From: Octopus vulgaris
Taxonomy: Eukaryota
Length of the DNA stretch: 64,000 nucleotides
Reading direction: 5' to 3'
Assembly: GCA_951406725.2 (NCBI GenBank)
Contig: OX597815.1
Location: 6,696,001-6,760,000 of the forward strand
The position numbers and the translations under genes are program-made. Positions 1,413 to 62,482 of the stretch are shown here, piece by piece (position 1 is the stretch's first letter; each line of letters starts with the position of its first letter). A model generated the notes under the pieces. The model was not told the DNA's origin, ran no database searches, and saw nothing but the letters and a program-made list of their open reading frames with translations.

Positions 1413-3135
1413 CTAAAGAGATCAAAACAGACAGTTAAACATATGGAAAAGAAGTGATTTCTTCCACAAATACATAAAATACTAAATAATCGTTTCTGTT
1501 CTAGGCACAAGGCCCGAACTTTTGGGGTAGAGGGGCCAGTCGATTAGATCGACCCCAGTGCGAAACTGGTACTTAATTTATCGACCCCGAAATGATGAAA
1601 GGCGAAGTCGACCTCAGAACGTAAAGACAGTCGAAATACCACTAAGCATTTCGCCCGGTGTGCTAACGTTTCTGCCAGCTCCCCGTCTTAAAATACTAAA
1701 ATAATAATCGCACAATTTCTCAGTCATCATCATGATCACTATCATTTTCTAAAACATGTCATATGGCACTGCGGATCGATGAAGCCAAATTTCCCAAATA
1801 CGACGATGTTTAAGTAATTGTGAGCTGCAACCACAAGGTTGATACAGTAGTTACCTCCCCTGAAGTGTTTCACTTCAGAGAGAACTTGCGTATGTTTGTC
1901 TACATTTTGTATATAACATTTACTTGTTTCAGGATTAGACAGCGACCATGCTGGGGCACCCGCCTTGAAGAATTTTTAGTTGAAAAAATCGATCCCAGTA
2001 CTTATTTTTTTAAAAACCTAGCATCAGTCTCATTTGGCGAACCTCTAAGTTATATATATATATATATATCTGGGTTCAGTCCCACTGCGTGGCACCTTGA
2101 TTGAGTGTCTTCTACTATAGCCTCGGGCCGACCAAAGCCTTGTGTGTGGATTTGGTAGGCGGAAACTGAAAGAAGCCAGTCGTATATATGTGTGTGTGTA
2201 TATGTATGTACGTGTGTGTGTGTGTGTTTGTCCCTCCAACATTGCTTGACAACTGATGCTGGTGTGTTTACGTCTCCGTAACATAGCGGTTCGGCAAAAG
2301 ATACTGATAGAATAAGTACTAAGCTTACAAAGAATAAGTCCCGGGTAGGATTTCTTCGGCTAAAGGCAGTGCTCCAGCATGGCCACAGTCAAATGACTGA
2401 ATATATATACAAACACACACATATATATATATATCATCTTTTATTCTTTTACTTGCTTCACTCATTTGACTGCAGCCCATGCTGGAAGACCATCTTTAGT
2501 TGAACAAATCGACCCCAGAACTTGTTCTATCGGTCTCTTTTGCAGAACCGCTAAGTCACAGGGGAATAAACACACCAACATTGGTTGTGAAGCAATGGGG
2601 AAGGGGGAACAAACACAGATACACAAATACATATATAAATATATATATATATATATACAATTGGCTTCCTTCAGTTTCCGTCTACCAAATCCACTCAAGG
2701 CTTTGGTTGGCCCGGGGCTATAGTAAAAGACACTTGCCCAAGGTGCTACGCAGTGGGACTGAACCTAGAACCATGTGGTTGGGAAGCAAGCTTCTTACCA
2801 CACAGCCACTCCTATTACTTTCAAATTTTGGCTCAGGGCCAGCAATTTTGGGAGTGGGGCTACTTCATTATATCAACCCCCAGAAGGGGACTTTGTCTTG
2901 TCTTGCAAGTTACTTGGGTACCCAGCCAGTGCTGGTGCCACAAAAAAGGCACCCAGTACACTTTGTTAAGTGAATGACATTAGGAAGGACATCCACCCAT
3001 GGAAACCATGCCAAAACAAACAAGAGAGCTGGTCACATCTTTCTGGCCTGTCAGCTTTTGTTTGAACATTCAGCCCATGCCAGCATGGAAAATGGACATT
3101 AAATGACTGAAACAAGTAAATGAAAAAAAAATATA

Positions 3136-4999: not shown

Positions 5000-6568
5000 A
5001 TACTTGTCCAAGGTTCTTTGCAGTGTGGAACGATTGATTTGGTGCAGTAGTTTGAATGCAGACAATGTGGCACGGCTAACTGGACATGCAGTGTTTTGAA
5101 GAGGGTGCATTTTCGTGCTGGAGGAAATGGTTCAGCTGCTGGCTCTCCAGATCCCAGTCAAACCATCCAACCCATGCCAGCATAGAAAACAGACATTAAA
5201 CAATGATGATCATGATGAATGGTACATGTACAGAAAGGAAAACAGACAGAGAGATTACAATTTACTAAACAAAATTGAGATTTCCCTCTTCCCATACTCT
5301 TTACTCTTTCACTTGTTTCAGTCATTTTGACTGCGGCCATACTGGAGCACTGCCTTTAGTCAAGCAAATCGACCCCAGGACTTATTCTTTGTAAGCCTTG
5401 TACTTATTCTATCAGTCTCTTTTGCTGAACCGCTAAGTTACGGAGATGTAAACACACCAGCATCGGTTGTCAAGCGATGTTGGGGGCACAAACACACACA
5501 CACAAACATATACACACAGACACATACATATACATGTATACGACAGGCTTCTTTCAGTTTCCGTCTACCAAATCCACTCACAAGGCTTTGGTCAGCCCGA
5601 ATCTATAGTAGAAGACACTTGCCCAAGGTGCCACGCAGTCAGACTGAACCCGGAACCATGTAGTTTGTAAGCAAGCTACTTACCACACAGCCACTCCTAC
5701 GCCTATACTCATACTTATAAAGAGAGAGGGAGAACAAGAGAAATGTTGATTTCAAACTTTGGTACAAGGCCAGGGAGTAAGTTGATTACACTGCCCCTAG
5801 TTTTTCATTGAAAGGATGAAAAGCCAAGTCAACCCTAGCAGAATTTGAACCCAGAACATAAAGATGGATGAAATGTTACCAAACATTTTGCCCAGCTTGC
5901 TAACAGTTCTACCAGCTTGATGCCTTAAATGTGAGAAAAATGTTGGTTTCAGATTTTGGTACAAAAAACAGCAATTTTGGAGGAGGAGATAAGTCAATTA
6001 TATCGACCCTATTGCTCAACTGGTACATACTGTATCAACCCCAAAAGGATAAAAAGCCAAGTCAACCATAGCAGAATTTGAACTCAGGACGTAAAGATGG
6101 ATGAAATACCACTAAGCATTTTGCCCAGCAAACTATTATGCTAGCTCTCTGGCTCCAAAGAGAGATATATTAAAACCTATTTCTTTATTACCCACAAGGG
6201 ACTAAACATAGAGGGGACAAACAAGGACAGACATAGGTATTAAGTCGATTACATCGACCCCAGTGAGTAACTGGTACTTAATTTATCGACCCCGAAAGGA
6301 TGAAAGGCAAAGTCGACCTCGGTGCAATTTGAACTTACAACGTAACAGCGGACGAAATACCGCAAAGAATTTCGCCCAGCGTGCTAACGTTTCTGCCAGC
6401 TCACCACCTTGAGAAAAATTTAGTTCAGTAGCTTTCCAAACAGAAATATTAAAACATCTACAGCCAAGTAAGTCAGCAATGCCAAAACAGCTGAGCCAAA
6501 ATGCCCCACAGCATCAACAGGGGGGATTGAACCAGGAGCTGTGTGGTTACAAAGCAAACTTCACCTAC

Positions 6569-6799
6569 CTCTTCTACATCTTCATCCAGCTGTTCCAAAG
6601 GGTCGACTTCCTTCACAAGTTCCTGGAGTCGTCGTTTGTCAAGGACCTTGCTCTCTGCTGGGGACACAGACATGGCAGGGTTCACCTGACTCGTTGTAAT
6701 GACAGGTCGAAGACCCGCTGGTTGCTGGTTCAAAGCCATCATCTGACTTGTACTCACAACGGGGCAGTTATTTTCGCCCATTCCAGGTAATTTATTCAT
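6569..6799 (-). CDS. TAF12: TAF12 first coding exon (MNKLPGMGENN...VLDKRRLQELVKEVDPLEQLDEDVEE); exon starts about 6812
   Basis: Histone-fold helix 1 matches TAF12 (VLTKKKLQDLVREVDPNEQLDEDVEE type). Acceptor ttttgatag before 6812, donor GAG|gtaggt at 6569, phase 0. Confidence 0.95.
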
Positions 6800-7045
6800 T
6801 GTGAGGAAAACTCTATCAAAAATGAAATGAAGTGAATACAAGAAAAAAAAATACTTTATCAATATTTCAAACTATAATCACACAAAACTGTGTACAAATT
6901 ATAAGAAATTAGCCAAAACCAAATCACTGTCATATATTATATATATATAATAATAATAATAATATTAAAGAGTATAACTCCAAACTTACAGGGAAAAATT
7001 CAATTTAGTATTAAATCAAATTCCAAAATATAAATATATAATATA

Positions 7046-13675: not shown

Positions 13676-14110
13676 TAAGTTATTCAAGTTATATTGGAAA
13701 GTTTCAATCGTGACATTCTTTAACAAAGGATAGACTGGTATATAAAACTATTTTCCGCAGTTTAGGATAATGAAATTTCGAGTGGATGCATCCGATTTCT
13801 GGAGCAACAGGATTAAGGCATTACAGAAATTTTCGCTTAATATGCGCTGCTGAAATCGGGATGCAACTAATATGCCTTTGCGTCTTTTATGCCTTCGAAT
13901 ATTTCACCTCAGAATACTGTGTACCGCTATCATTCATGTCGCTATCATAGACATCTCATTCTGCAAAGTGGCTGGCAAGTAAGTAGACATTTGCAATAGT
14001 GAAGATATGTGTGGGGGAATGAAGGGAAAAAGCCATAGCTGAGAGGGAGTGAATCACCCCCATTGAAGCAGCCAGTACGTCGCCCAGGGGGTAGGACAAA
14101 CTGGAGAGTC

Positions 14111-14808
14111 GATCATGCAAAGCCTCAAATTGTGTAGGTCTTTACCTCAATGAGTCCAAGACTGAATATGTAAACAAGCGCCTGTCCAACAGTGATTTCA
14201 TCATCCATACTCTCAACAATACGCCCTTAAATATGGTTTCTGATTATAAATATCTTGGGTCATACATATCATCATCTGGAAAAGATTTTCTAACAAGAAA
14301 GGGTATGGCCTGGTCAGCATGTAATGACAAGCATAAGATCTGGTCATCAAATCTAAGTAGAGACTTCAAACTTGAAATCTTCAAAGCCACAGTCGAACCA
14401 ATTCTACTATATGGCTTAGAAACTTGGACGTTATCAAAGAAGCTTGAGAGGCGGTTGGATGGAACCTACACTCGCCTCCTTATGAGAGCTCAAAATCTCT
14501 CGTGGAAGCGCCATCCAACCAAAATGCAAATATATGGGAAACTACCACCTGTATCATCTCTTGTGAAAGGTAGAAGTGTCCAGTTTGCTGGACATTGTTG
14601 TAGAGCTGAAAACGAGGTAATTTCTACTCTTCTCCTCTGGAAGCCATCTGCTCGCGATACCAGAGGGTGCACACTCTCCTACCCTGATGTAATCTCCAGG
14701 GATACAGGCATCCAGCAACAGGGCCTCCGTAATGCTATGATGAACCGTGAAGTCTGGCGTAGCATGGTAAGTTCCATTGTCTTGACCACGGTCGAACAAT
14801 GATGATGA
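14111..14808 (+). mobile_element. 5'-truncated RTE/RTEX-like LINE, RT thumb to stop, with (GAT)n tail
   Basis: GLYLNESKTEY...YKYLGSYI...VEPILLYGLETWTL...QFAGHCCR. Candidate TSD AGAGTC at 14105-14110 and 14809-14814. Confidence 0.9.
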
Positions 14809-24919: not shown

Positions 24920-25880
24920 TACGTGATGGGGTGCGGAAAAGTTCCTGGCTTTTGGGTAAAAAATACAGGAGGATCGTGATTTTATTCAACATATAGGCAT
25001 AGGAGTGGCTGTGTAGTAAGTAGCTTGCTTACCAACCACATGGTTCTGGGTTCAGTCTCACTGCGTGGCATCTTGGACAAGTGTCTTCTACTATAGCCTC
25101 GAGCCGACCAAAGCCTTGTGAGTGGATTTGGTAGACGGAAACTGAAAGAAGCCTGTCATATATATGTGTATGTGTGTGTGTGTGTGTTTGTATGTCTGTC
25201 CCCCAGGCATTGCTTGACATCAATGCTGGTGTATTTACGTCCCTGTAACTTAGCAATTCGGCATAAGAGACCGATAGAATAAGTACTAGGCTTACAAAGA
25301 ATAAGTCCTGGGGTCGATTTACTCGACTAAAGGCAGTGCTCCAGCATGGCCGCAGTCAAATGACTGTAACAAGTAAAAGAGTAAAGAGTGAGTATATTCC
25401 AATCTCGGATTCTCACACCTATTCCAGCAGTCCTTCAGTTTTTGTAAGCCCTGTTAAGAGAATTCAAAAGGTTGGGGCCCCCAACCAGTCCTCTGTAGCA
25501 GCAATCACTTCCATATATTAATATGGTAAAATTTCCATTCCTTGACATGTTTATGTTTCTTCCAGTTGTGGAAAGAGGTGATAGTCAGAGGGGGCCAAGT
25601 CAGGAGAGTAAGGTGGGTGGTCTACTAACTCAAGGCCAATGTCACGTATTTTTCAGAGTTTCAAGTGCTGGGGCATTGTCCTGCAAAAACAGGACACCAC
25701 AGCTCAGCTTTCCATGGCGTTTCAGCCACAAAGCTTCATACAGTTCCTGCAACAGAGACGTGTAATATTCAGCATTGATGGTGCAACTCTTTGACAGGTA
25801 TTTTGAGGAGTGCTTCATCATTTTCCCACCATACTGAAGCCAGAATCTTTCCAGCCGACTTCTGTGTCCAAAACTTCTTT
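24920..25880 (-). mobile_element. Degenerate mariner transposon remnant, interrupted by a SINE at 24995-25390
   Basis: Minus strand encodes LFLQDNAP (about 25670-25692) and HPPYSPDLAPSDY (about 25580-25620). A mariner-like TIR lies near 24920. Confidence 0.85.
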
Positions 25881-28139
25881 GAGATACGGTTTCACATCCA
25901 TTTTCATGCTGGCATGGGTATTGGATGGTATGACAGGAGTTGGCAAGCTCTACTGTTAATTTCTACACTTGGATAATCATAGTCGTAGCTGATACAGGTG
26001 TTACACAAGTAGCACCTGTGCTGGTGGCGCATAAAAAGCACCTTTCAAGCATTGAGCCTCACAAAGGCAAAGTGGCTGAGCTCCTTTTGAGTGTTGGGCA
26101 TCACAGAAACAATGACCTAGATGGCGGCCAGCTGGCAGTAACATTAGCATGCTGGGCGAAATGTTTAGCAGTATTTCATCTGTCGCTACGTTCTGAGTTC
26201 AAATTCCGCCAAGGTCGACTTTGCCTTTCATCCTTTCGGGGTCGATTAAATAAGTACCAGTTAGAAATTGGGGTCGATATAATCGATTTGATCCATTTGT
26301 CTGTCCTTGTTTGTACTCTTTGTGTGTAGCCCTTTGTGGGCAGTAAAGAAATAAGAAGCAATGACCTAGACCTTTGGCAGTATGTGCTTGAGAAGAAGAC
26401 ACATCAAGCTGAGCAAAATCACAGCTGTGGCAGATACCAGTGTCACACAAATGGCACGTAAAATCACCCATTACACTCTCAGAGTGGTTGGTGTTAGGAA
26501 GACAATCCAGCCATAGAGACCATACCAAATCAGACTGGTGTCTGGTGCAGCCTTCCAGCTTGCCAGCCCTGTCAAACTGTCTGCCAATGTCAGCATGGAC
26601 AATGGACGTTAAATGATGATGATGATGATGATGATACTCTCATGTATATTGTATGTTTGTATATAGGTGTTCAAAAAAAATAGAGTCAGATTTTATGTAA
26701 TGCACCAAAAACAATAATTTCTACAGATCCGCATGTTTTAAGCATCACAGATTACAATTTTAAAAGAAAAAAATTTTAAAAAGACAGCAGTTTTCTTCTT
26801 CCTGGCTTCCTTTTCAGTAACTTTTCAGTTTTGACTTTTATGAAAATTTTATTCATGTTTACACAAATTTTTGAATAATATGAATCTCAGGTGTTTGATA
26901 CGAAATCTGAAAACATTTTCTAAAGAAACTCAAGACTGAAATTACAGATTTAAATTACGGAGAAAGATAAAGGCAAAAAAAATCTACCTGTTCTTTTCCA
27001 TTTCTTTTTTTCTTTCTTTTTTTTTTCTTTTTCACGGGTGATAGGAGCCGAATCATGATCTATAAATGCTTAAACATACACATCCCAAAAAAATTATAGT
27101 TTTTGGCACACTACAACTCTATTCTATAGAAATGCCATCGCCCATATAATACATTAAATGAACTAATTGCATTGCAATTGTAAGCATTTATTTATTAGCC
27201 TTTTGGGTACTTCACTGGTAGTATATTGGATAAATGATATCCCATAGTGGGTTACACTCATAACCCCTATCTCACTTTGTACTTATATATATATATATAG
27301 CCTGAGTGGCTACTGCGTTGGTGGCACATAAAAAAAGCACCATTCAAGCGTGGTCAATGCCAATACCACCTGACTGGCCCCTGTGCTGGCGGCATGTAAG
27401 AAGCACCCACTACACTCTCAGAGTGGTTAGTGTTAGGAAGAGCACCCAGCTGTAGAAACCTTGCCAGATCAGATTGGAGCCGGGTGCAGCATTCTGGCTT
27501 GCCAGTCCTCAGTCAAACTGTCCACACCATGGCCGCATGAAAAGCGGATGTCAAACAACGATGATGATGATATGTATATAAAAGTTCAAATAGAGGTTAA
27601 AATAACCACCTTAAGAGATAAGAAAATACCCAATGAGTTACTGGTTTGTTACCTATTATTTTGTTGTGAACAGTAATATTCATAAAGTAATAGTAATTTG
27701 TATGTATATATATATATAGTTAGAATTCACAAAAAACAAAAGACAAAGACAGGTGTATAAACAACAAACAGGTGTATTAGTTTAACGCTTGAGGTGAGAA
27801 TGTCTTTTACGTTTCAAGCCTACGCTGTTCAACAGAAAGGAACACAAAAAAATAAAAAGGGAGAGAATAAAAAAAGAAACCTTAAGTAGTTAGCAGTCAA
27901 TCATAGCAATGGCCGGACAGAGGTGGTCTGACAGGAGAGCTAGGAAGAATGGGAGATAATAAAGTAGCAGTGATCCCAAAACCAAGGTGTGTGTGTGTGT
28001 GTGTGTGTGTGGATAGGGGCAGGTGACCTTAACATGTGGGTGTGTGGATGATGGTATGGGTGCTGGGAAGTGGTCAGTGCTAGTGTGTGCGGAGTGGTGA
28101 TGGTTGTGTGTTGTGATGTGTTGGTGATATAGCCCAACA

Positions 28140-30260: not shown

Positions 30261-31218
30261 ATAGGCGCAGGAGTGGCTATGTGGTAAGTAGCTTGCTAAC
30301 CAACGACATGGTTCCAGGTTCAGTCCCACTGCGTGGCATCTTGGGCAACTGTCTTCTGCTATAGCCCCGGGCTGACCAATGTCTTGTGAGTGGATTTGGT
30401 AGACGGAAACTGAAAGAAGCCTGTCGTATATATATATATGTATGTGTTTGTGTGTCTGTGTTTGTCACCCTAGCATTACTTAACAACCGATGCTAGTGTG
30501 CTTACGTCCCTGTCACTTAGCGGTTCGGCAAAAAAAGACCGATAGAATAAGTACTGGGCTTACAAAGAATAAGTCCTGGGGTCGATTTGCTCGACTAAAG
30601 GCGGTGCTCCAGCATGGCCGCAGTCAAATGACTGAAACAAGTAAAAAAAAAAAAAGTAATAAAAGAATTATTAAACTAAAAACTTTTGTACCTTATTTAT
30701 ATATAAAATACGACAATTAGCCCTTATTTTTGATGGCATGGGGCCAGCTAGTTTAACATAGTCCTCAGGAATATACAGTGTGACACAGAATGTGAGAGGA
30801 TGGTCCTTTGAAATACAGGAACAATTTTTGCCAGCTGAGTGGTCTGGCTGGAGCAATGAGAAATAAAGTGTCTCCCTCAAAGACACACAATGCAACACTG
30901 GGAATTGAACTCACAACCTTATGATTGTGAGCCAAATACCACTAACCACTTAGCCACACACCTTCACATGTATAATGTATGAAATATTTTTGCTGAAAAT
31001 GTTAGATTACAGAAGAGGGTCCACTTGTTTCATTCTAGAATTTGTTAGAATAATGATGCAGCATAAGATGGTACAAGGGTCTCTTTGTTAGGAGGCTTTT
31101 CAGCTAAAAATAGAATGTTCTATACATACATACATACATACATGCATACATACATACATATATATGTATTTATGTATATATGTGTGTGTGTGTGCGCGTA
31201 TATATGTATATATATATG

Positions 31219-49791: not shown

Positions 49792-51484
49792 GTGAGCTGT
49801 AATGTTCAACATTTTAGACTAACTTTTTCATGCAATTAACCCCCTTTCTATTATTTAATCTCTAACACTATGTTAATTAATTACTAATTTGCAAGTCTAC
49901 AGATTTTCGAAAGAAATTAAATTTAGTATTCCCCCACCTAAGTTGAGGGGTTTCACTAACCCTAACTTCACTAATACTGATGCCATGTAAAAAGAATCCA
50001 GCACACTTTGTAGTGGCTGGCATTTGGAAGGAAGGGCATCCATCCCATAGAAACCATGCTAAAAAAAAAGGGGTGTGTGCATTGGAGCTTGGTCCAATCC
50101 TCTGGCTTGCTGCTAGCTCCTGCCATCCGTCCCATGCCAGCATGGAAAATGGATGTTAAACGGTGAGCCATCCTGAGCCAGTTTTCCACCATGTTTCTTA
50201 AAAATCGTGGTAGAGGCCTTGGTCTCAGGGACCACTCATGTCTGGAAACTGAGCCTGGGGGTAAGCAAGGGCATGCTCCCCGTAGAAAATCCAGCTCCCA
50301 AAAAGCCTCATGATAGCAAGGGAGAATGAGCACCAGCCAGCCCAAAGGTTGGGGTGGGCTGCACCTGCCTGCCTCAGTTGCTATGGTATGGAGGTAGATC
50401 TGGCCACCCCTGTTAACAGGGACAAAACCCGGATTTAAAATACTGGATGGATGATGATGGTGATATTTTAATTAGTAATTCTTTACTCTTAATCTTCACC
50501 AGTTTCCACAGTCATCATCTATTCTCCCTTGTTTTCCCTCCAATTTATATTCCTCATCAACCATTCCTCAACCCTTGATTTTTCATTCATATCCCTCCCT
50601 CCTCTGATCTATTACTAACCATTCCTCACTCTCCCAACACACTAATGTAACCATTACCTACCTATGATTCCACTTCTGCTCCCTCTCCTATTCATTTTCT
50701 TAAAGCTGGAGGGTTTATCTTGATACCTCATCACCCCTATGTTATCTCTCTTCCTGGCTCCACCCCATTTATTCCCATCCATTCGTCTATAATGTGGGTA
50801 GTTATGTAGCTCTTCTATAGCAAGAAGCCTGTTCTTTTCAGGTCTCTTCTTCATTACTTTAACCCTTTAGTGTTCACATTCTGCCAAAATGAAATCTTCA
50901 TCTACATTGTCTTGAACAGCCCCCACTCCTTTGTAGGGGGATCTTTTTCTTGCTAATTACATGGTGTCCTCACTAGTGCTGGAGTCACAAAAAAAAATAG
51001 AAGGCACCTAGTACACTGTTAAGTGGCTGGTGTTAGGAAGGACATCTAACCATATAAAACCATGCCAAAACAGACATTGGAACAAGATGCAGTCCTCAAA
51101 CCTGTTGGATCATGTCAAACCATTCAACTCTTGCCAGTATGGAAAATGTACATTAAGAGAAGATGATGATTACTTTCGGCCATAGCACATTTTACCTTCT
51201 TCATAATATTCACTTTTGAAATAGGCACAATACCTCAGATTTGGGAAAAGGGGGATTACAGTGGCCCTGTACTTCACTGGTTTAAATTGAGATGAAAAGG
51301 GACCCGTTTCCTAAAGGGGCATAACTACTGCTAGGTATTTTCTTCCTCACTTCTACACTAATCTTACAATATTTGCCCTTAACCTTTTTGTTACCATATG
51401 TCCATTCCGTAAGGTGGTTGGTATTAGGAAGGGCATCAAGCCATAAAAACCATGCCAAAACATACAGTGAAGCCTGCTGCAGTC

Positions 51485-52018
51485 TTTGACGGATATTTGT
51501 CCTCATCTTGTTTGTTGTTAACACGTTTCGGCTAATATACCCTCCAGCCTTCATCAGCTGGCTTGGAGAAATTTCGAACCTGGGTTCTCATTCCTAAGGT
51601 ATTTTTCCATATTATTATTATTATTATTATTCAGGTCACTGCCTGGAATCGAACTCGGAATCTTGGGGTTAGTAGCCCGCACTTTTAACCACTACGTCAT
51701 ATGCCTGTGGGCAATTAAGGAGTGAATTTTTAGGGTTATAAGTCTAATATTTATTCCATAATTGCCCACGGGCATATGGCCTAGTGGTTAAGAGCATGGG
51801 CTACTAACCCCAAGATTCCGAGTTCAATAATAATAACAATAATAATATCGAAAAATACCCTAGGAATGAGAACCCAGGTTTGAAATTTCCCTGCGACACC
51901 TGATGAAGGCTGGAGAGTATATTAGCCGAAACGTTGTGTTAACAACAAACAAGATGAGGAGAAATATCCATCAAATGTAAATAATGTACATAATTCCTCA
52001 TGTCTTAAATATAGAACT
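51485..52018. mobile_element. Palindromic element: two divergent arms, each tRNA-like head + (AAT)n + minimal hammerhead
   Basis: 51485-51716 (minus) is the reverse complement of about 51760-51975 (plus), with a ~43-nt spacer. Confidence 0.8.
51895..51940 (+). ncRNA. Minimal type I hammerhead ribozyme (Penelope-type)
   Basis: GACAC-CTGATGA-A-GGCTGG(agagtata)TTAGCC-GAAA-C-GTT-GTGTT: stem I, core, stem II, palindromic AACGTT in place of stem III. Confidence 0.75.
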
Positions 52019-52305
52019 GCACACTGCCTTTGTTTCAATTGAGCTAATGTTTGGGACATATGAAATGGCATGAAACCATTTGATGGAAGGTTTTAAAAAA
52101 AGGCAGAATCATAGAACCAGGTGTAGTCTCAGGTAGGTTGGCATCAAAAGGATTAACCGTTTTGTTAACAAATTCTTGCCAAAATACACTAACTCTGTTT
52201 CAATTAATTTTGAACCAAACGAAGAATTTAATAACCTAACTTTGTTTTTATTACTAACTCTGTGTTTGAAGCATGAATTAACATGAAATTTGATGGGAAC
52301 TAATA

Positions 52306-52611: not shown

Positions 52612-52989
52612 GTGGAGGCGCAATGGCCCAGTGGTTAGGGCAGCAGACTCGCGGTTTCAATTCCCAGACCGGGCGTTGTGAGTGTTTATTGAGTGAAAAC
52701 ACCTAAAAGCTCCATGAGGCTCCGGCAGGGGATGGTGGTGATCCCTGCTGTATTCTTTCACCACAACTTTCTCTCACTCTTACTTCCTGTTTCTGTTGTA
52801 CCTGTATTTCAAAGGGCCGGCCTTGTCACTCTCTGTGTCACGCTGAATATCCCCGAGAACTACGTTAAGGGTACACGTGTCTGTGGAGTGCTCAGCCACT
52901 TACACGTTAATTTCACGAGCAGGCTGTTCTGTTGATTCGGATCAACCGGAACCCTCGTTGTCGTAACTGACGGAGTGCTTCCATCCATC
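52612..52989 (+). mobile_element. tRNA(Arg)-like SINE family C flanked by a 96-bp direct repeat
   Basis: Head GGAGGCGCAATGGCCCAGTGGTTAGGGCAGCAGACTCGCG and (CCAT)n tail. Flanks 52516-52611 and 52993-53088. Confidence 0.85.
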
Positions 52990-54356
52990 GATATCAAAAG
53001 GACTGAATTTTTTAAATTTCAGTCTTGCTGAGGAATTCCATTGTGTAGGGTTTGTTGTGGTTTTGTTTCCTTGTTATGAAAGACCAGTTATAGAACTTTT
53101 GAAACACGACTAAAGAATTATCAGATTTATCACCATTTTTCAGTTGGTTGGAACCAGCTTTTGTTAGCAGGGGAAACTAGAGCAAACAGTTATATGATTT
53201 GCTCAGGGTCACAACAGCTGTTGTTAGGTTTGAACTTATGACCTTGTAATCAGTAATCCAGCGACTTAACCACATGGTCAGTGTACCTCTGAGGTTCTCC
53301 ATTCTACATGCATTTATTTTTTTAAATTCTTTATTGCAATCATTAGAAATAATGAATGCAATGGCTGTGTAGTTAAGAAGCTGACTTCCTGACCATCTGG
53401 TCTTGGGTTCAGTCTCACAGCACAAGACCTTGGACAAGAGTTTTAGCCTCAGGTCAACTAAACCCTTGTTAGTGGATTTGATAGATGGAAACTGAAAGAA
53501 GCCCATCGTGTGTGTCCCTATAAACACACACACACACACACATACAGAGGCATGTCTGTGTGGCAAGAAGTTTGCTTCTCAAGCCCAAGGTTCCACATTC
53601 AGTCTGAGTATGGCATTTTGGGCAGATGTCTTGTATAGCCCCAGGCTGACCAAAGTCTTGTGAGTGGATTTGGTAGGCAGGAACTGAAAGAAGCCTGTTT
53701 TATGTGTGTGTGTGTGTGTTTGTGCCTCTTTATCATGACATGGTGTGATAGTTGTAAATGAGTGTCACTGTCATACAAGCAGTGTCGTTCATTTCTGATA
53801 TTCTGTGAGGACATATCTGGCTGTGGGGAAATGTTACCTTGCTTGGAAATAGGTGAGAGTTGGTGACAGGAAGAGCATCTGGTCGTAGAAAATCTGCCTC
53901 AAATAAACTCCCTCTGACCGATGCAAGCACGAAAAAGGTACCATGTAGTGATACTGACTGGACCTAAAACTATGCATTTGGGAAACAAACTTCTTGACCA
54001 TAATGTCACACTTGGACTCATAAAATATTTGATTGTAATTTTTTTAGTTTTGTATTCATATCTTGGCTCACTGTTGAAGTTGCATTTCACCTGTTGTAGC
54101 TGGTGTAAGGAAGGACACTGAGCCATATAAGCCACACCAAAAAAAGAACAGACAAGCAACACATGGTCCTCCGAACCATCCATGTGATGGGCAGTGTCTC
54201 CAAAGAAGAATTCACTCAGATTGTAATGATCCATCCAACACATGTTAATATGGGGAATGGACATAAAATGATGGTGATGATGAATGTTACTACTTATCTC
54301 TATCCCCACTGATTGCTAAAGTCCTCCATCTCTGTTCAACTTTATTCCTAATACAC

Positions 54357-54605
54357 TATTTACATTTGACGGATATTTGTCCTCATCTTGTTTGTTGTTA
54401 ACACAATGTTTCGGCTGGTGTACTCTCCAGCCTTCATCAGGTGTCCTGGGGGAATTTCAAACCTGGGTTCTCATTCCTAAGGTATTTTTCTGATGGTATT
54501 ACTACTATTATTATTTTTACGGTCACTGCCTGGAATTGAACTCGGAATCTTAGGGTTAGTAGACCACGCTCTTAACCACTACGCCATATGTCCATGGGCA
54601 ATTAT
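54357..54605 (-). mobile_element. Third copy (single arm) of the tRNA-head/hammerhead element
   Basis: Near-identical to 51485-51716. Confidence 0.85.
54400..54445 (-). ncRNA. Minimal type I hammerhead, CG>CA change in stem III
   Basis: GACAC-CTGATGA-A-GGCTGG(agagtaca)CCAGCC-GAAA-CATT-GTGTT. Confidence 0.6.
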
Positions 54606-54639
54606 TCCTAATGTATGGTGTCTTATATCTAAGTTGTTC

Positions 54640-55004
54640 ACGCCGCCGCCGTGGTGATCTCATTCTCGCTCACAACATCATCAGCGGAAAGTGTAACCTC
54701 TCGAAAGAGCTGTTCTTCACTCCTGCTCCAGAGCGTCGGCTGCGGGGTCATTCCGAAAAGCTCTACCTGCGACGATTTCATCTCAATCGAAGGAGAGGAG
54801 CTTTCTCCGTCCGGGTTGCGGATCTGTGGAACAAGCTGCCAGACGAGATGGTGAAGATGCCGACGACCGCTTTGTTCAAAGTCTCCCTTGACCGCAAGTG
54901 GCCTGAACTCTTTACATGAACACCACCCTGTACATAACTCCATGTCCCCCTACATGGCCTTGCTTTTTGCTTTTGAGCCAAAAAATTAACTAACTAACTA
55001 ACTA
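54640..55004 (+). mobile_element. 5'-truncated CR1-clade LINE 3' end with (TAAC)n tail
   Basis: RRRRGDLI...LRGHSEKL...FSVRVADLWNKLP...FKVSLDRKW is a classic CR1 ORF2 end, followed by TAACTAACTAAC. Confidence 0.9.
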
Positions 55005-59281: not shown

Positions 59282-61418
59282 AAGCCAGGTACTTATTCTC
59301 TTGATCTCGTTTGCCAAACTGCTAAGTTACAGGGATGTAAATATATCAACATGGGTTATCAAGCGGTGGTGGGGACAAATACACACACGTCCCCTGGCTC
59401 CTGTGCTGGTGGCATGTAAAAAATAACCAACCGAACTTGGCCGTTTGCTAGCCTCCTCTGGCCCCTGTGCAGGTGGCACGTAAAAAGCACCCCCTACACT
59501 CACGGAGTGGTTGGCGTTAAGAAGGGCATCAGTTGTAGAAATGCCAGATCAGACTGGAGCCTGGTCAGCTCCTGCTTCCCAGACCCCGGTCGAACCGTCC
59601 AACCCATGCCAGCACGGGAAAACGTTAAACGATGATGATGATGAAAGGCTTCTTTCAAAACTTTTGTTGGCCCAATAGTAAATCCTTTAAGGTGCCATTT
59701 AAATTTTTTCTCTTTTTACAAATATTTATTTTTGATAAATATCCCAGCTAATTTCAGTAGTTTCATCATTTTATGAATTGCACCATTAGAGCAGTTTTGG
59801 GATCTTCTTCGTGGCACTGGCCCTATCCCTCTCTCTCTCTTTCGGAGAGGCACTGAGCAGCTATACACACACGGCAGTAACTTCCACCTACCGAATTCAA
59901 TCACAAAGCTCCGGTCGGCTCGGGGCTATAGCGGAAGACACCTACCCAAAGTGCCACGCAGTGGGACTGAACCCAAAACCATGTAGTTCAGAAGCAAGCT
60001 CTCTAACCACACAGCCATGCCCGTGCCTCTTGTTGTATAACCCTTCAGCACTTAAACTACCCATACCCAACCCAAGTATTCTACCTCACTCCATATTTTG
60101 TTCATGGTGAGCCATTTGAGTTGCACAGCCAGTCATTGAAGGACAATGATAATATCATAAGAGGGACCTGTCTCTTGTGTCACTTTGCAGTGTCTACAAA
60201 TATTTCCAGTCTTTGTAAATTCCCAGCTGAATTTCAGGAGTTTCATGATTTTACCCCTGTGAAATGCACTGCTTCCCACACAGTCTGGTTGGGGAAAACT
60301 GTGAACTGACTTGGTGTATTTCCACCTATTTGTCTACAGTAAGAAATGCGCTCTCCATTACAAAATACACTGAATAGCTTTCTTATGGTTTCGAATAAGC
60401 CTCAAGCATATTTGAACTCATCATCATCATCGTTTAACGTCCACTTTCCATGCTAACATGGGTTGGACGATTGACTGAGGGCTGTCGAACCAGATGGCTG
60501 CACCAGGCTCCAATCTTGATCTGGCAGAGTTTCTACAGCTGGATGCCCTTCCTAACGCCAACCACTCCGAGAGTGTAGTGGGTGCTTTTTACGTGCCACT
60601 GGCACGGGGGCCAGTCAAGTGGTACTGGCAATGACCTCGCTCGAATCTTTTTACACATGGCACAGGTGCCAGTAAGGCGACGTTGGTAACGATCACGCTC
60701 AAATGGTGCCCTTTTACGTGCCACTGGCACGGAAGCCAGTTGGCTGCTCTGGCAACGATCACGCACATACTAGCACAGGCATAAGTGCCAGTAAGGCGAC
60801 GCTGGTAACTATCACGCTCGAATGGTACCCTTTTATGTGCCACTGGCACGGAAGCCGGTTAACAAGTTTATTTATACACATCTCTATTTAGGATTTCATT
60901 GTGATCCCTTGAGAGATTAACCCATTCAAGCTGATCATCCGTTTAAACCGAGTCACTCAATTTATAAGGGTGTGAAACAAATACTTGATACAAATTATGA
61001 TTTGTGTATGAAGCTCTTTTACCTGTTTCAGTCATTTGACTGTGGCCATGCTGGAGCACCGCCTTTAGTCGAGCAAATCTTACAGTCATGAGTCCAACAC
61101 CCTAACCACTAAGCCATGTGCCTCCACTTCATTTCCCACTGCTCCAATCCACCCAGTTGCTGAAAATGAATAGTCCTATGATGGAATGGTGTCCCATCCA
61201 GGGAGGAATATATATGCCAAGGAAACTGGGAAACCAGCTGTATGCTTCTTATGGGGTGATGTGGACTAAGCACATCATTCCATAAGTGATAGGGACCCCG
61301 GTTGAGAATCCCTGTATTATTGAATTAGTTTTGCCCCAATTGTATAAACTGGATTTGTTTAGTTTCTCCAAAGCTTTATGGCTTTTGTGATTTTTACTTT
61401 GTGTCTCTCTTGTTTTAG

Positions 61419-62426
61419 CTAAATCTCCAAGTGGTGGAACCAATACAAAGTCAAATAGAAGAAATAGCCAAAGAGAAGCGACCTCTTCACCTGAGCCCGG
61501 AAGCAAGGCAGCTTCTCCCAGAAGAACACCACTGAGTGAATTGAGTTCTGCAGGAACAAGTCAAAAAGTGGTTTCAGCTGGTAAAGCGAAAGATTCTTCA
61601 CCTTTGAATGGGATTCCAATTCACGAATGGAGAAGTCGTTCAACTACTCCAAAATCAGCTAAACTTGACCGAACCAGTTCCTCAGAGAAACAAAAGAAAA
61701 GGCACAAATCTCTAGAAAGATTTGAATCTCCTCGGCTGTCTAAGAAAGATAATGTTCTAGATGACCCTTCTCCAAAGAAAACAGAAGCCTCTAACGATCC
61801 TGTTAAAACGCCTAAAGCAAAATCTGTCTCAGCCTCTCCTGCCACGACACCAGCTTCGGCAAGGAAGAGCCGTTCTACAACACCAGTTTCTAAAAGTTCA
61901 AGGCAAAGCGGTGTGAGCTCTGGCTCTCCTAAGAGCCCTGAAGAAGATTCAAAACCAGCATCTGGGAAAAGCAAAAGCCGGGCAAACAGTCCAAAAAGTC
62001 TGGTTAAAAATGGTGACTTGGAATTAAGTGGCAAAAATAAAAGTGAAGAAATCCATTCGGTTAAAGACTTGAAAAGGAAATCTACAACTTCATGTGATAC
62101 GGATGATGCCAGTGACGGCACTAAGACGTCCAAAACTCACCGGACACCTTCAAAGTCTCCAGTTAAAGAAACTGAAAGTAAAGTTTCTAAAAGGAAAAGC
62201 CTGAATTTAACGGAATCGAGTTCGCAGGTGACGAGTGAAACACCTGGTTCCAAGGATAAAAGTAGGAGTCCCTCACCAAAATCACCTGTTAAACAGTTGA
62301 ATAATTCCACAGCAGCAGGCGGTCAGTCTGCAAGATCAAGTCCATCCAGTACGAAACCTTCGCCTGCAAATAGAAAGTCAGTTGGAAATGTTCCTTCTCC
62401 AAAGATGGTGTCAGCTGGCAACTCAG
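61419..62426 (+). CDS. MKI67: Large basic Ser/Lys/Pro/Thr-rich disordered exon of the Ki-67-like gene, 1008 nt
   Basis: Open frame across 1008 nt with many S/T-P-x-K/R CDK-type sites. Acceptor ctctcttgttttag, donor CAG|gtaata, phase 1 to 1. Assigned to this gene by position and composition; see the phase-mismatch finding. Confidence 0.8.
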
Positions 62427-62482
62427 GTAATATGATCTTTCCACACTTCGTTATTTCATTGTTATTATTATTAAGGTAGCAA

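Follow-up and report, generated by a model that had tools for sequence, protein, structure and literature searches.

A dispersed repeat of Octopus vulgaris with a tRNA-like head and a Penelope-type hammerhead end, probably mobilised by a Penelope-like enzyme

The analysed stretch of Octopus vulgaris DNA (64 kb, hereafter the window) contains three copies of one ~260-nt element, found when each arm was compared with the whole window by BLAST (E 1e-70 to 1e-77). Two copies, a left arm (L) and a right arm (R), lie back to back, and the third (T) stands alone (Table 1). The BLAST match spans were 51717-51485 on the minus strand for L and 51758-51988 on the plus strand, continuing to 52019, for R. 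A preliminary description of the locus had already named three arms with the third at 54357-54605; all three were recovered, the third at 54605-54352 on the minus strand. Other matches of the arms in the window were just (AAT)n and short A-box-like ones, and BLAST found no fourth copy anywhere in the 64 kb, whether full or a part that includes linker, ribozyme or tail.

Each arm reads in the same order: leader or start, degenerate tRNA-like head with A and B boxes, (AAT)n, linker, hammerhead and AC-rich tail. The junction of head, linker and hammerhead is identical in all three copies. The motifs that the preliminary description gave for each arm form a composite that no single arm carries: 19 nt are missing from the head of R, stem I of L is broken and 3 nt are gone at its cleavage site, T is without the stem III palindrome, and the whole hammerhead as quoted there is present in R only. 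The B box of R is reduced to six letters because of the missing 19 nt. Pairwise identity of L, R and T is 88.4-90.3% over gap-free columns (L/R 90.2%, R/T 90.3%). L and R are no more alike than R and T, so their likeness does not point to a single template for the pair. A stem II change common to L and R was rejected as proof of one template, because ~0.5-0.65 coincident changes are expected by chance.

Table 1. Features of the three copies and of their surroundings in the window. Papers cited here and in the text stand for the accessible portions of each.
Feature	Position	Strand	Basis
Left arm L: leader, head, (AAT)n, linker, broken hammerhead, tail shortened at the 51975 equivalent	51485..51738	-	BLAST/alignment
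Degenerate hammerhead of L: disrupted stem I, 3 nt gone at cleavage site	51520..51562	-	alignment
(AAT)n tract of L, between head and PLE-like part	about 51610-51632	-	sequence, alignment
tRNA-like head of L: A box 51699-51689 (one change), B box 51656-51645	51634..51706	-	sequence, alignment
Two 5' leaders back to back ("spacer"), decayed palindrome centred on TTATAA (51736-51741)	51718..51758	.	self-complementarity
Right arm R: leader, head minus 19 nt, (AAT)n, linker, intact hammerhead, full tail	51739..52019	+	BLAST/alignment
tRNA-like head of R: tRNA +1 51770, A box 51777-51787, B box ending after 51825	51770..51825	+	sequence, alignment
(AAT)n tract of R, between head and PLE-like part	51826..51847	+	sequence, alignment
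Minimal type I hammerhead of R, predicted cleavage after 51935	51895..51940	+	core pattern, fold, features as in PMC4209133
AC-rich tail of R, possible stem-loop 51954-51961 with 51994-52001	51941..52019	+	loose ends, fold
Target-site duplication of T, first copy, 11 bp	54342..54352	+	sequence comparison
Third copy T: single, head complete, end at the 51987/51988 equivalent	54353..54601	-	BLAST, motif patterns
Hammerhead core of T, stem III palindrome lost	54440-54409	-	core pattern
A box of T head	54586-54576	-	A/B-box pattern
Target-site duplication of T, second copy, 11 bp	54602..54612	+	sequence comparison
Reading frame like 3' end of CR1/L2-type LINE, beside T	54625-54919	+	no Pfam match
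TAF12-like exon (PF03847)	6473-6871	-	Pfam
LINE-like RT C-terminal remnant (DUF6451, weak)	14095-14802	+	Pfam
Mariner transposase remnant (PF01359)	25642-25962	-	Pfam
Serine-rich frame, 362 codons, no Pfam match	61391-62479	+	Pfam scan

The surroundings hold remnants of other mobile elements, a TAF12-like exon and a serine-rich frame. By its motifs the frame at 54625-54919 (plus strand) resembles the 3' end of a CR1/L2-type LINE. Other tRNA-like heads with A and B boxes, belonging to other repeat families, lie at 30902-30956 and 61103-61123 on the minus strand and at 52613-52670 on the plus strand.

Public sequencing runs were matched to 51455-52084 at 80% likeness, which covered three DNA runs (three organisms) and one RNA run, out of 24 runs from four organisms in which the element was listed. 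The DNA runs gave 28,922, 36,998 and 35,220 matching contigs, with flank depth near zero. Summed depth is not a copy number; bounded by hand from one of these runs (X1), the family amounts to 10^4 to a few 10^5 copies, the figures used being about 4.4 million over two tails, 13-21 for single contigs and an overlap inflation of up to 31-fold. Among the best 24 of 103,092 pieces, at least one contig from another locus spans the unit from the hammerhead to the 5' part of the head (51553-51710), and at least two run from the hammerhead or tail into the 3' part of the head. The element fits the traits of a SINE: it is shorter than 700 bp, non-coding, dispersed and present in many copies, with a target duplication around T.

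The A/B-box pattern matched the window twice, against 0.00 expected, in the T arm and in the unrelated head at 30902-30956. ARAGORN at default called 0 tRNA genes in the element head and at 60-80% of its threshold gave weak calls only, mostly on the opposite strand; Rfam did not recognise the head as tRNA; and the head has no cloverleaf fold, the stems mostly failing. The best three phage matches of the L head sit on annotated tRNA genes, with E values of 0.2-3 that are not significant. We regard the head as degenerate and tRNA-like; its A and B boxes would fit a tRNA origin that ARAGORN, Rfam and BLAST did not confirm. On the sense strand of the linker, a second B-box-like stretch was seen at 51874-51890 (plus strand), with the same stretch in L and T, and the antisense of this stretch has a weak tRNA-like fold by relaxed ARAGORN.

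Element starts in the public DNA runs cluster at 51763-51773, just upstream of the head, and T starts at the equivalent of 51759-51762. The tRNA +1 of R was set by counting 7 nt upstream of the A box. A TATA-like hexamer, TTATAA, lies 22-27 nt upstream of the usual start. Runs of four T are absent from the sense strand of all three copies, for which the odds are about even by chance, and the first such run lies 72 nt beyond the end of R. The clustered starts, the hexamer and the lack of sense-strand T4 together suggest that Pol III would start just before the head.

A hammerhead-core pattern matched the window four times against 0.06 expected, and three of these matches are the arms described here; 0 of 100 shuffles reached four. 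The core CUGANGA, GAAA and the NUH triplet are present in R and T, and L fails at residue 17 (G) and retains 2 contiguous pairs in stem I. In R the hammerhead has a stem I of 5 bp, a stem II of 6 bp, an extra A after the core, G10.1-C11.1, a palindromic stem III and a GUU triplet. The minimal hammerheads of Penelope-like elements (PLEs) are described as having an extra base between 9 and 10.1, G10.1-C11.1, a short stem I (4-5 bp), a long stem II (7-8 bp in S. mansoni, 6 bp in D. virilis) and a palindromic 15.2-16.2 (PMC4209133). The R hammerhead matches this signature, and the site proposed earlier, after 51935, is correctly placed in R as a predicted one. PLE hammerheads of this kind are reported to cleave poorly, only as dimers or with protein (PMC4209133, PMC11167929). 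A dimer in cis is impossible for L and R, since the two arms lie on opposite strands, and an RNA reading through the pair would form a 223-bp hairpin. The palindrome at 15.2-16.2, lost from T through one change, is present in R and in one metagenome contig (L003) described below; the self-duplex has -3.5 kcal/mol with the palindrome vs +2.8 kcal/mol without it. Rfam did not recognise the hammerhead of the element, and its mir-5882 match (32 bits, gathering 95) was rejected, as it merely reflects the fold-back.

Stem II pairing had been described as kept between copies. The pairing is indeed kept, but the changes are one-sided exchanges of G-U and G-C and not compensatory; the G-U of R at 51923 is G-C in 98-99% of the family depth. 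In the public runs the family letters keep the core, both stems and the palindrome, and among the variant rows listed a common variable site, 51916, falls in loop II. Invariance across the three copies was 33 of 35 positions in the tail vs 5 of 8 in the core and stem III, and the comparison of core with flanks, resting on 40 of 101 variant rows, decides neither way. A covariation check on four sequences found two double changes in stem I, which is not significant (34 of 500 shuffles as good).

The hammerhead pattern was found at 6 loci in metagenome contigs and at 0 in viral contigs, and head, linker and tail of this family were absent at all 6. Two unrelated contigs among these (L003 and L006), selected for core and stem II alone, carry this palindrome together with a stem I that differs in sequence yet pairs; L006 is a near-duplicate of L003 and was omitted from the covariation pair count. 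No ORF longer than 113 aa lies within 1.5 kb of their hammerheads (1501-1529, minus strand). Another unrelated metagenome contig (L001) holds, at 83-326, a 244-nt fold-back (86%) that lacks a tRNA head and carries the same core in each arm.

The 3' boundary of the family does not coincide with the ribozyme. Loose ends of the matches recur at 51988, 51994 and 52019 in all three DNA runs, with 52017 or 52018 as well in two (best 24 of 1672 rows), and those listed for the RNA run are 51987, 51988 and 52019. The family thus ends 53, 59 and 84 nt beyond the predicted cleavage site after 51935. Past 52021 the depth drops ~1000-fold, and in each DNA run 351-475 contigs depart at 52019. T stops at the first end cluster and R at the last; the optional tail between the clusters measures 23-31 nt. 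No A-tail or simple-repeat tail was found at the 3' end. The preliminary description held that the ribozyme defines the RNA's 3' end, which did not hold up: the copies and the listed loose ends continue 40-84 nt past the cleavage site, and with family ends 53-84 nt downstream, the copied RNA does not owe its 3' end to the ribozyme. For PLEs, an optional tail of 30-40 nt has been described, with two RT start sites inside the RNA and an AC-rich stem-loop downstream of the hammerhead (PMC11167929; the optional tail likewise in PMC8557442). By this comparison the discrete downstream ends match the PLE optional tail, although it is 23-31 nt here against the 30-40 nt cited. The possible stem-loop in the tail of R is no more stable than shuffles (z -0.05).

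A duplication as good as the 11 bp around T was seen in 4 of 3000 random window pairs. Around the L/R pair no target duplication was found, matches being limited to 5-mers. L ends at the equivalent of 51975, which is not a usual end of the family, and the neighbouring repeat breaks off there too without picking up again farther on. Both facts indicate that this end was deleted later, and the deletion accounts for the absence of a target duplication around the pair.

As described before, L and R point outward with ~43 nt between them, but the intervening sequence is not a spacer of foreign DNA: it consists of the two leaders. The two halves of 51719-51757 are complementary to each other about 51738/51739, to a degree that 0 of 1000 shuffles reached, and the majority family letters at 51718, 51752 and 51754 make both leader halves alike. 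In other copies the leader reaches 4-5% of head depth (DNA runs) or 21% (RNA run), and less than 1% of head depth in the DNA runs crosses its central hexamer. That both arms bear the rare leader and meet at its palindromic hexamer points to one event.

Head-to-head junctions at varying places account for 11 of the best-supported 15 of 509 joints. In seven of these 11, one arm starts at -7 to +4 of the tRNA +1 and the other is broken off at any point between head and tail. At 51485-51489, four 'opposite strand' joints stem from the cut end of L and were excluded from the inversion count. In X1, 95 contigs begin at 51763, and their loose consensus holds an inverted head (agreement 0.46). Head-to-head pairs are thus recurrent but form no fixed unit, as in PLEs, where an inverted 5'-truncated copy adjoins the 5' end (PMC8557442, PMC8969392) and pairs of minimal hammerheads 100-700 bp apart on opposite strands have been noted (PMC4209133).

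The RNA run contains 10,107 matching reads (784 per million) without strand bias, and its depth climbs from head to hammerhead to tail (2426, 3677 and 5835). No place with many read starts or ends was found in this run, nor any dip or end at 51935, in a library that is ill-suited to cleavage ends, and 73% of the matching reads continue into unlike sequence. The lack of a pile-up of read ends and the 73% run-on argue for passenger transcription and not for a free Pol III RNA. The depth rises steadily over 51896-52000, part of which may be due to copies of the cleaved 3' product. In 595 RNA reads the same hammerhead and tail are preceded, at 51895, by another 5' sequence that is related but not identical; these reads could come from a sister SINE or from the pLTR of the partner PLE. 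Places with A>G or T>C number 39 of 86 in the RNA run vs 18 of 48 in the DNA run with the same organism label; RNA editing of the arms is not claimed, as G>A and C>T also occur among the letters specific to the RNA run.

From these data we read the element as a dispersed Pol III SINE that is probably mobilised by a PLE enzyme, with the back-to-back pair as a by-product of integration, and we put the probability of this reading at roughly 75%. The earlier interpretation as a non-autonomous element that combines a Pol III-type head with a PLE-type minimal hammerhead gains support from the recurrent unit and the PLE integration marks, as far as these can be read from DNA.

Each of the other explanations that we considered accounts for part of the evidence. 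PLE endonucleases prefer AT-rich and microsatellite targets (PMC11167929, PMC8557442), so (AAT)n tails could be hit repeatedly and a tRNA SINE and PLE ends, as unrelated repeats, become nested by chance; hammerhead and tail depth above head depth would agree with this. The constant junction in 3/3 copies, the one duplication around the whole of T and the bridging contigs elsewhere lead us to reject such nesting as extremely improbable. If instead a LINE (RTE, CR1 or other) copied a tRNA SINE in which the PLE end is a passive body segment, the target duplication and 5' truncation would follow as for any target-primed element, and LINE remnants are present in the window. The 3' end without a simple-repeat or A-tail, the two or three discrete ends and the recurrent head-to-head pairs speak against a LINE partner, as does the position of the PLE-like piece at the very 3' end, the seat of partner recognition, and we give it a slim chance.

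Similarly unlikely, though a little less so, are two other readings. In one of them a longer PLE has captured a tRNA-like segment and is transcribed by Pol II; the unit would be its pLTR, the 5'-truncated end, and the short copies truncations. The longer leader, with its higher share in the RNA run, and the sister form of the 595 reads would suit it; starts clustered at 51763-51773 instead of spread, and more than 99% of head depth stopping short of the leader hexamer in the DNA runs, would not. The other is a retrozyme like SMalpha, whose layout of tRNA-like promoter and type I hammerhead the element shares: the hammerhead would cut multimeric or Pol III transcripts to unit RNAs, possibly circles, which would then be reverse-transcribed. 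The retention of core, both stems and palindrome in the family letters fits, and a few 'go back' joints exist. Against this, the three copies and the listed loose ends extend 40-84 nt past the cleavage site, the window has no head-to-tail array, the joints listed are head-to-head, and the RNA depth, in its ill-suited library, has no dip or end at 51935. For the tested PLE enzyme, moreover, uncleaved RNA was the main substrate in vitro and cleavage was unnecessary for insertion (PMC11167929).

For the preferred reading, a PLE-mobilised SINE, the following course may be proposed. The element would owe its origin to the insertion of a truncated PLE end into the (AAT)n tract that trailed a simple tRNA SINE, the hammerhead being inherited with the pLTR piece and cleaving at best as a dimer or with protein help. 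Pol III would start ~7 nt upstream of the tRNA-like head, read through the whole unit, in which it meets no run of four T, and stop in flanking DNA. The uncleaved RNA would be bound by the RT-endonuclease of an autonomous PLE via its pLTR-derived 3' part (hammerhead and AC-rich stem-loop). This enzyme would nick AT-rich DNA and begin reverse transcription inside the RNA at two or three sites, which would yield the fixed ends with or without the 23-31-nt tail. Products could be full-length or 5'-truncated, and single (as T, with its duplication) or head-to-head; in the window pair, two cDNA ends presumably met at the self-complementary hexamer of the leader, after which both arms would have decayed and the left end been deleted. 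The one tested PLE enzyme cuts at ATT (PMC11167929), and Octopus vulgaris has 190 PLE families that make up 6.83% of its genome (2026 Octopus vulgaris repeat paper). No PLE ORF was found near the hammerheads of L003 and L006 or among the five window ORFs scanned, and five motifs or names looked up in the text supplement of PMC8557442 gave no match in sequence.

Among known systems that resemble the element, the schistosome elements SMalpha and Sjalpha are said to have been described originally as SINE-like by Ferbeyre in 1998 and Laha in 2000, and the octopus tRNA-derived SINEs OK, OR1 and OR2 reportedly by Ohshima and Okada in 1994. SMalpha and Sjalpha are likewise short non-coding retroposons, in which a type I hammerhead follows a tRNA-like Pol III promoter; SMalpha differs in being often tandem, about 335 bp long and freed from multimers by its ribozyme (PMC6765202, PMC8490949, PMC4918200), whereas the octopus element occurs as dispersed singles or head-to-head pairs, has a PLE minimal hammerhead and ends 53-84 nt downstream of the site. 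The coupling of a tRNA-like promoter to a hammerhead is known from SMalpha; a dispersed tRNA-headed, PLE-ended element with PLE marks was not found in the literature searched.

The pLTRs of PLEs share the ribozyme architecture, the optional tail, the inverted 5' partner, the AT-rich targets and the internal RT start (PMC4209133, PMC8557442, PMC11167929); the octopus element differs in having no ORF and a tRNA-like A/B-box head in place of the element body, and the accessible portions of these three papers make no mention of tRNA-headed derivatives. Animal non-LTR retrozymes are also non-autonomous, with a type I hammerhead and a proposed PLE dependence (PMC7229834; 10.64898/2026.07.22.740005). 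They are defined by head-to-tail tandem units that yield circular RNAs (PMC7229834), whereas for the octopus element the window shows no tandem array, and its ends do not fall at the cleavage site. The terms 'tRNA' and 'polymerase III' are absent from the accessible text of the Li et al. 2026 preprint (10.64898/2026.07.22.740005). Retrozymes (PMC7229834) and Chlamys are known non-autonomous PLE derivatives, and a curation guide, in the part available, notes that retrozymes might be classed as a new type of SINE. With tRNA-derived SINEs the element shares a length below 700 bp, an A/B-box head, a target duplication and very high copy number (SINEBase, PMC3531059), and differs in that its partner appears to be a PLE rather than a LINE and that it has no simple-repeat 3' tail. 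In Helenus and Cassandra (TRIMp3) a captured Pol III promoter likewise drives a non-autonomous element of a non-LINE retroelement class; these are LTR elements with PBS, PPT and 4-5-bp duplications, and the octopus element bears PLE marks (PMC10886601).

Judged by its sequence, the octopus element is one that works like a non-autonomous PLE with a SINE head and lies outside tandem retrozymes and SMalpha as defined. No tRNA-headed, PLE-ended dispersed element was found for cephalopods in the literature searched; most subscription papers, Repbase, Dfam and the 1994 octopus SINE sequences lie outside this comparison. The accessible text and text supplement of the 2026 Octopus vulgaris repeat paper contain neither 'hammerhead' nor 'ribozyme'. 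A family this abundant is very likely already in repeat libraries under some label, and if it is merely a mislabelled entry there, the gain is one of annotation.

A Penelope partnership is seldom described for repeats that carry their own promoter, and this one most likely borrows Penelope enzymes. More tentatively, and with somewhat less than even confidence, we propose a class of Penelope-dependent SINEs, in which a Pol III promoter is fused to a minimal PLE recognition module and thereby freed from the tandem-copy promoter of PLEs. Such a class would number some 10^4-10^5 copies here, and its head-to-head pairs would arise when a dimeric PLE enzyme copies two RNA templates and the cDNAs are joined through short self-complementary ends. 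If true, this would complete the set of SINE-LINE, TRIMp3-LTR and SINE-PLE, and PLE start sites and inversion junctions could be mapped from natural insertions. Little is understood of how PLEs transpose, and the process has been reconstituted in vitro for a single element (PMC11167929). An RNA of 260 nt copied tens of thousands of times would define the cis signals that a PLE enzyme needs, and its many insertions would allow start sites, targets, inversion junctions and any use of cleaved RNA to be counted. The definition of a SINE, which now names LINEs as partners (PMC3531059), would widen.
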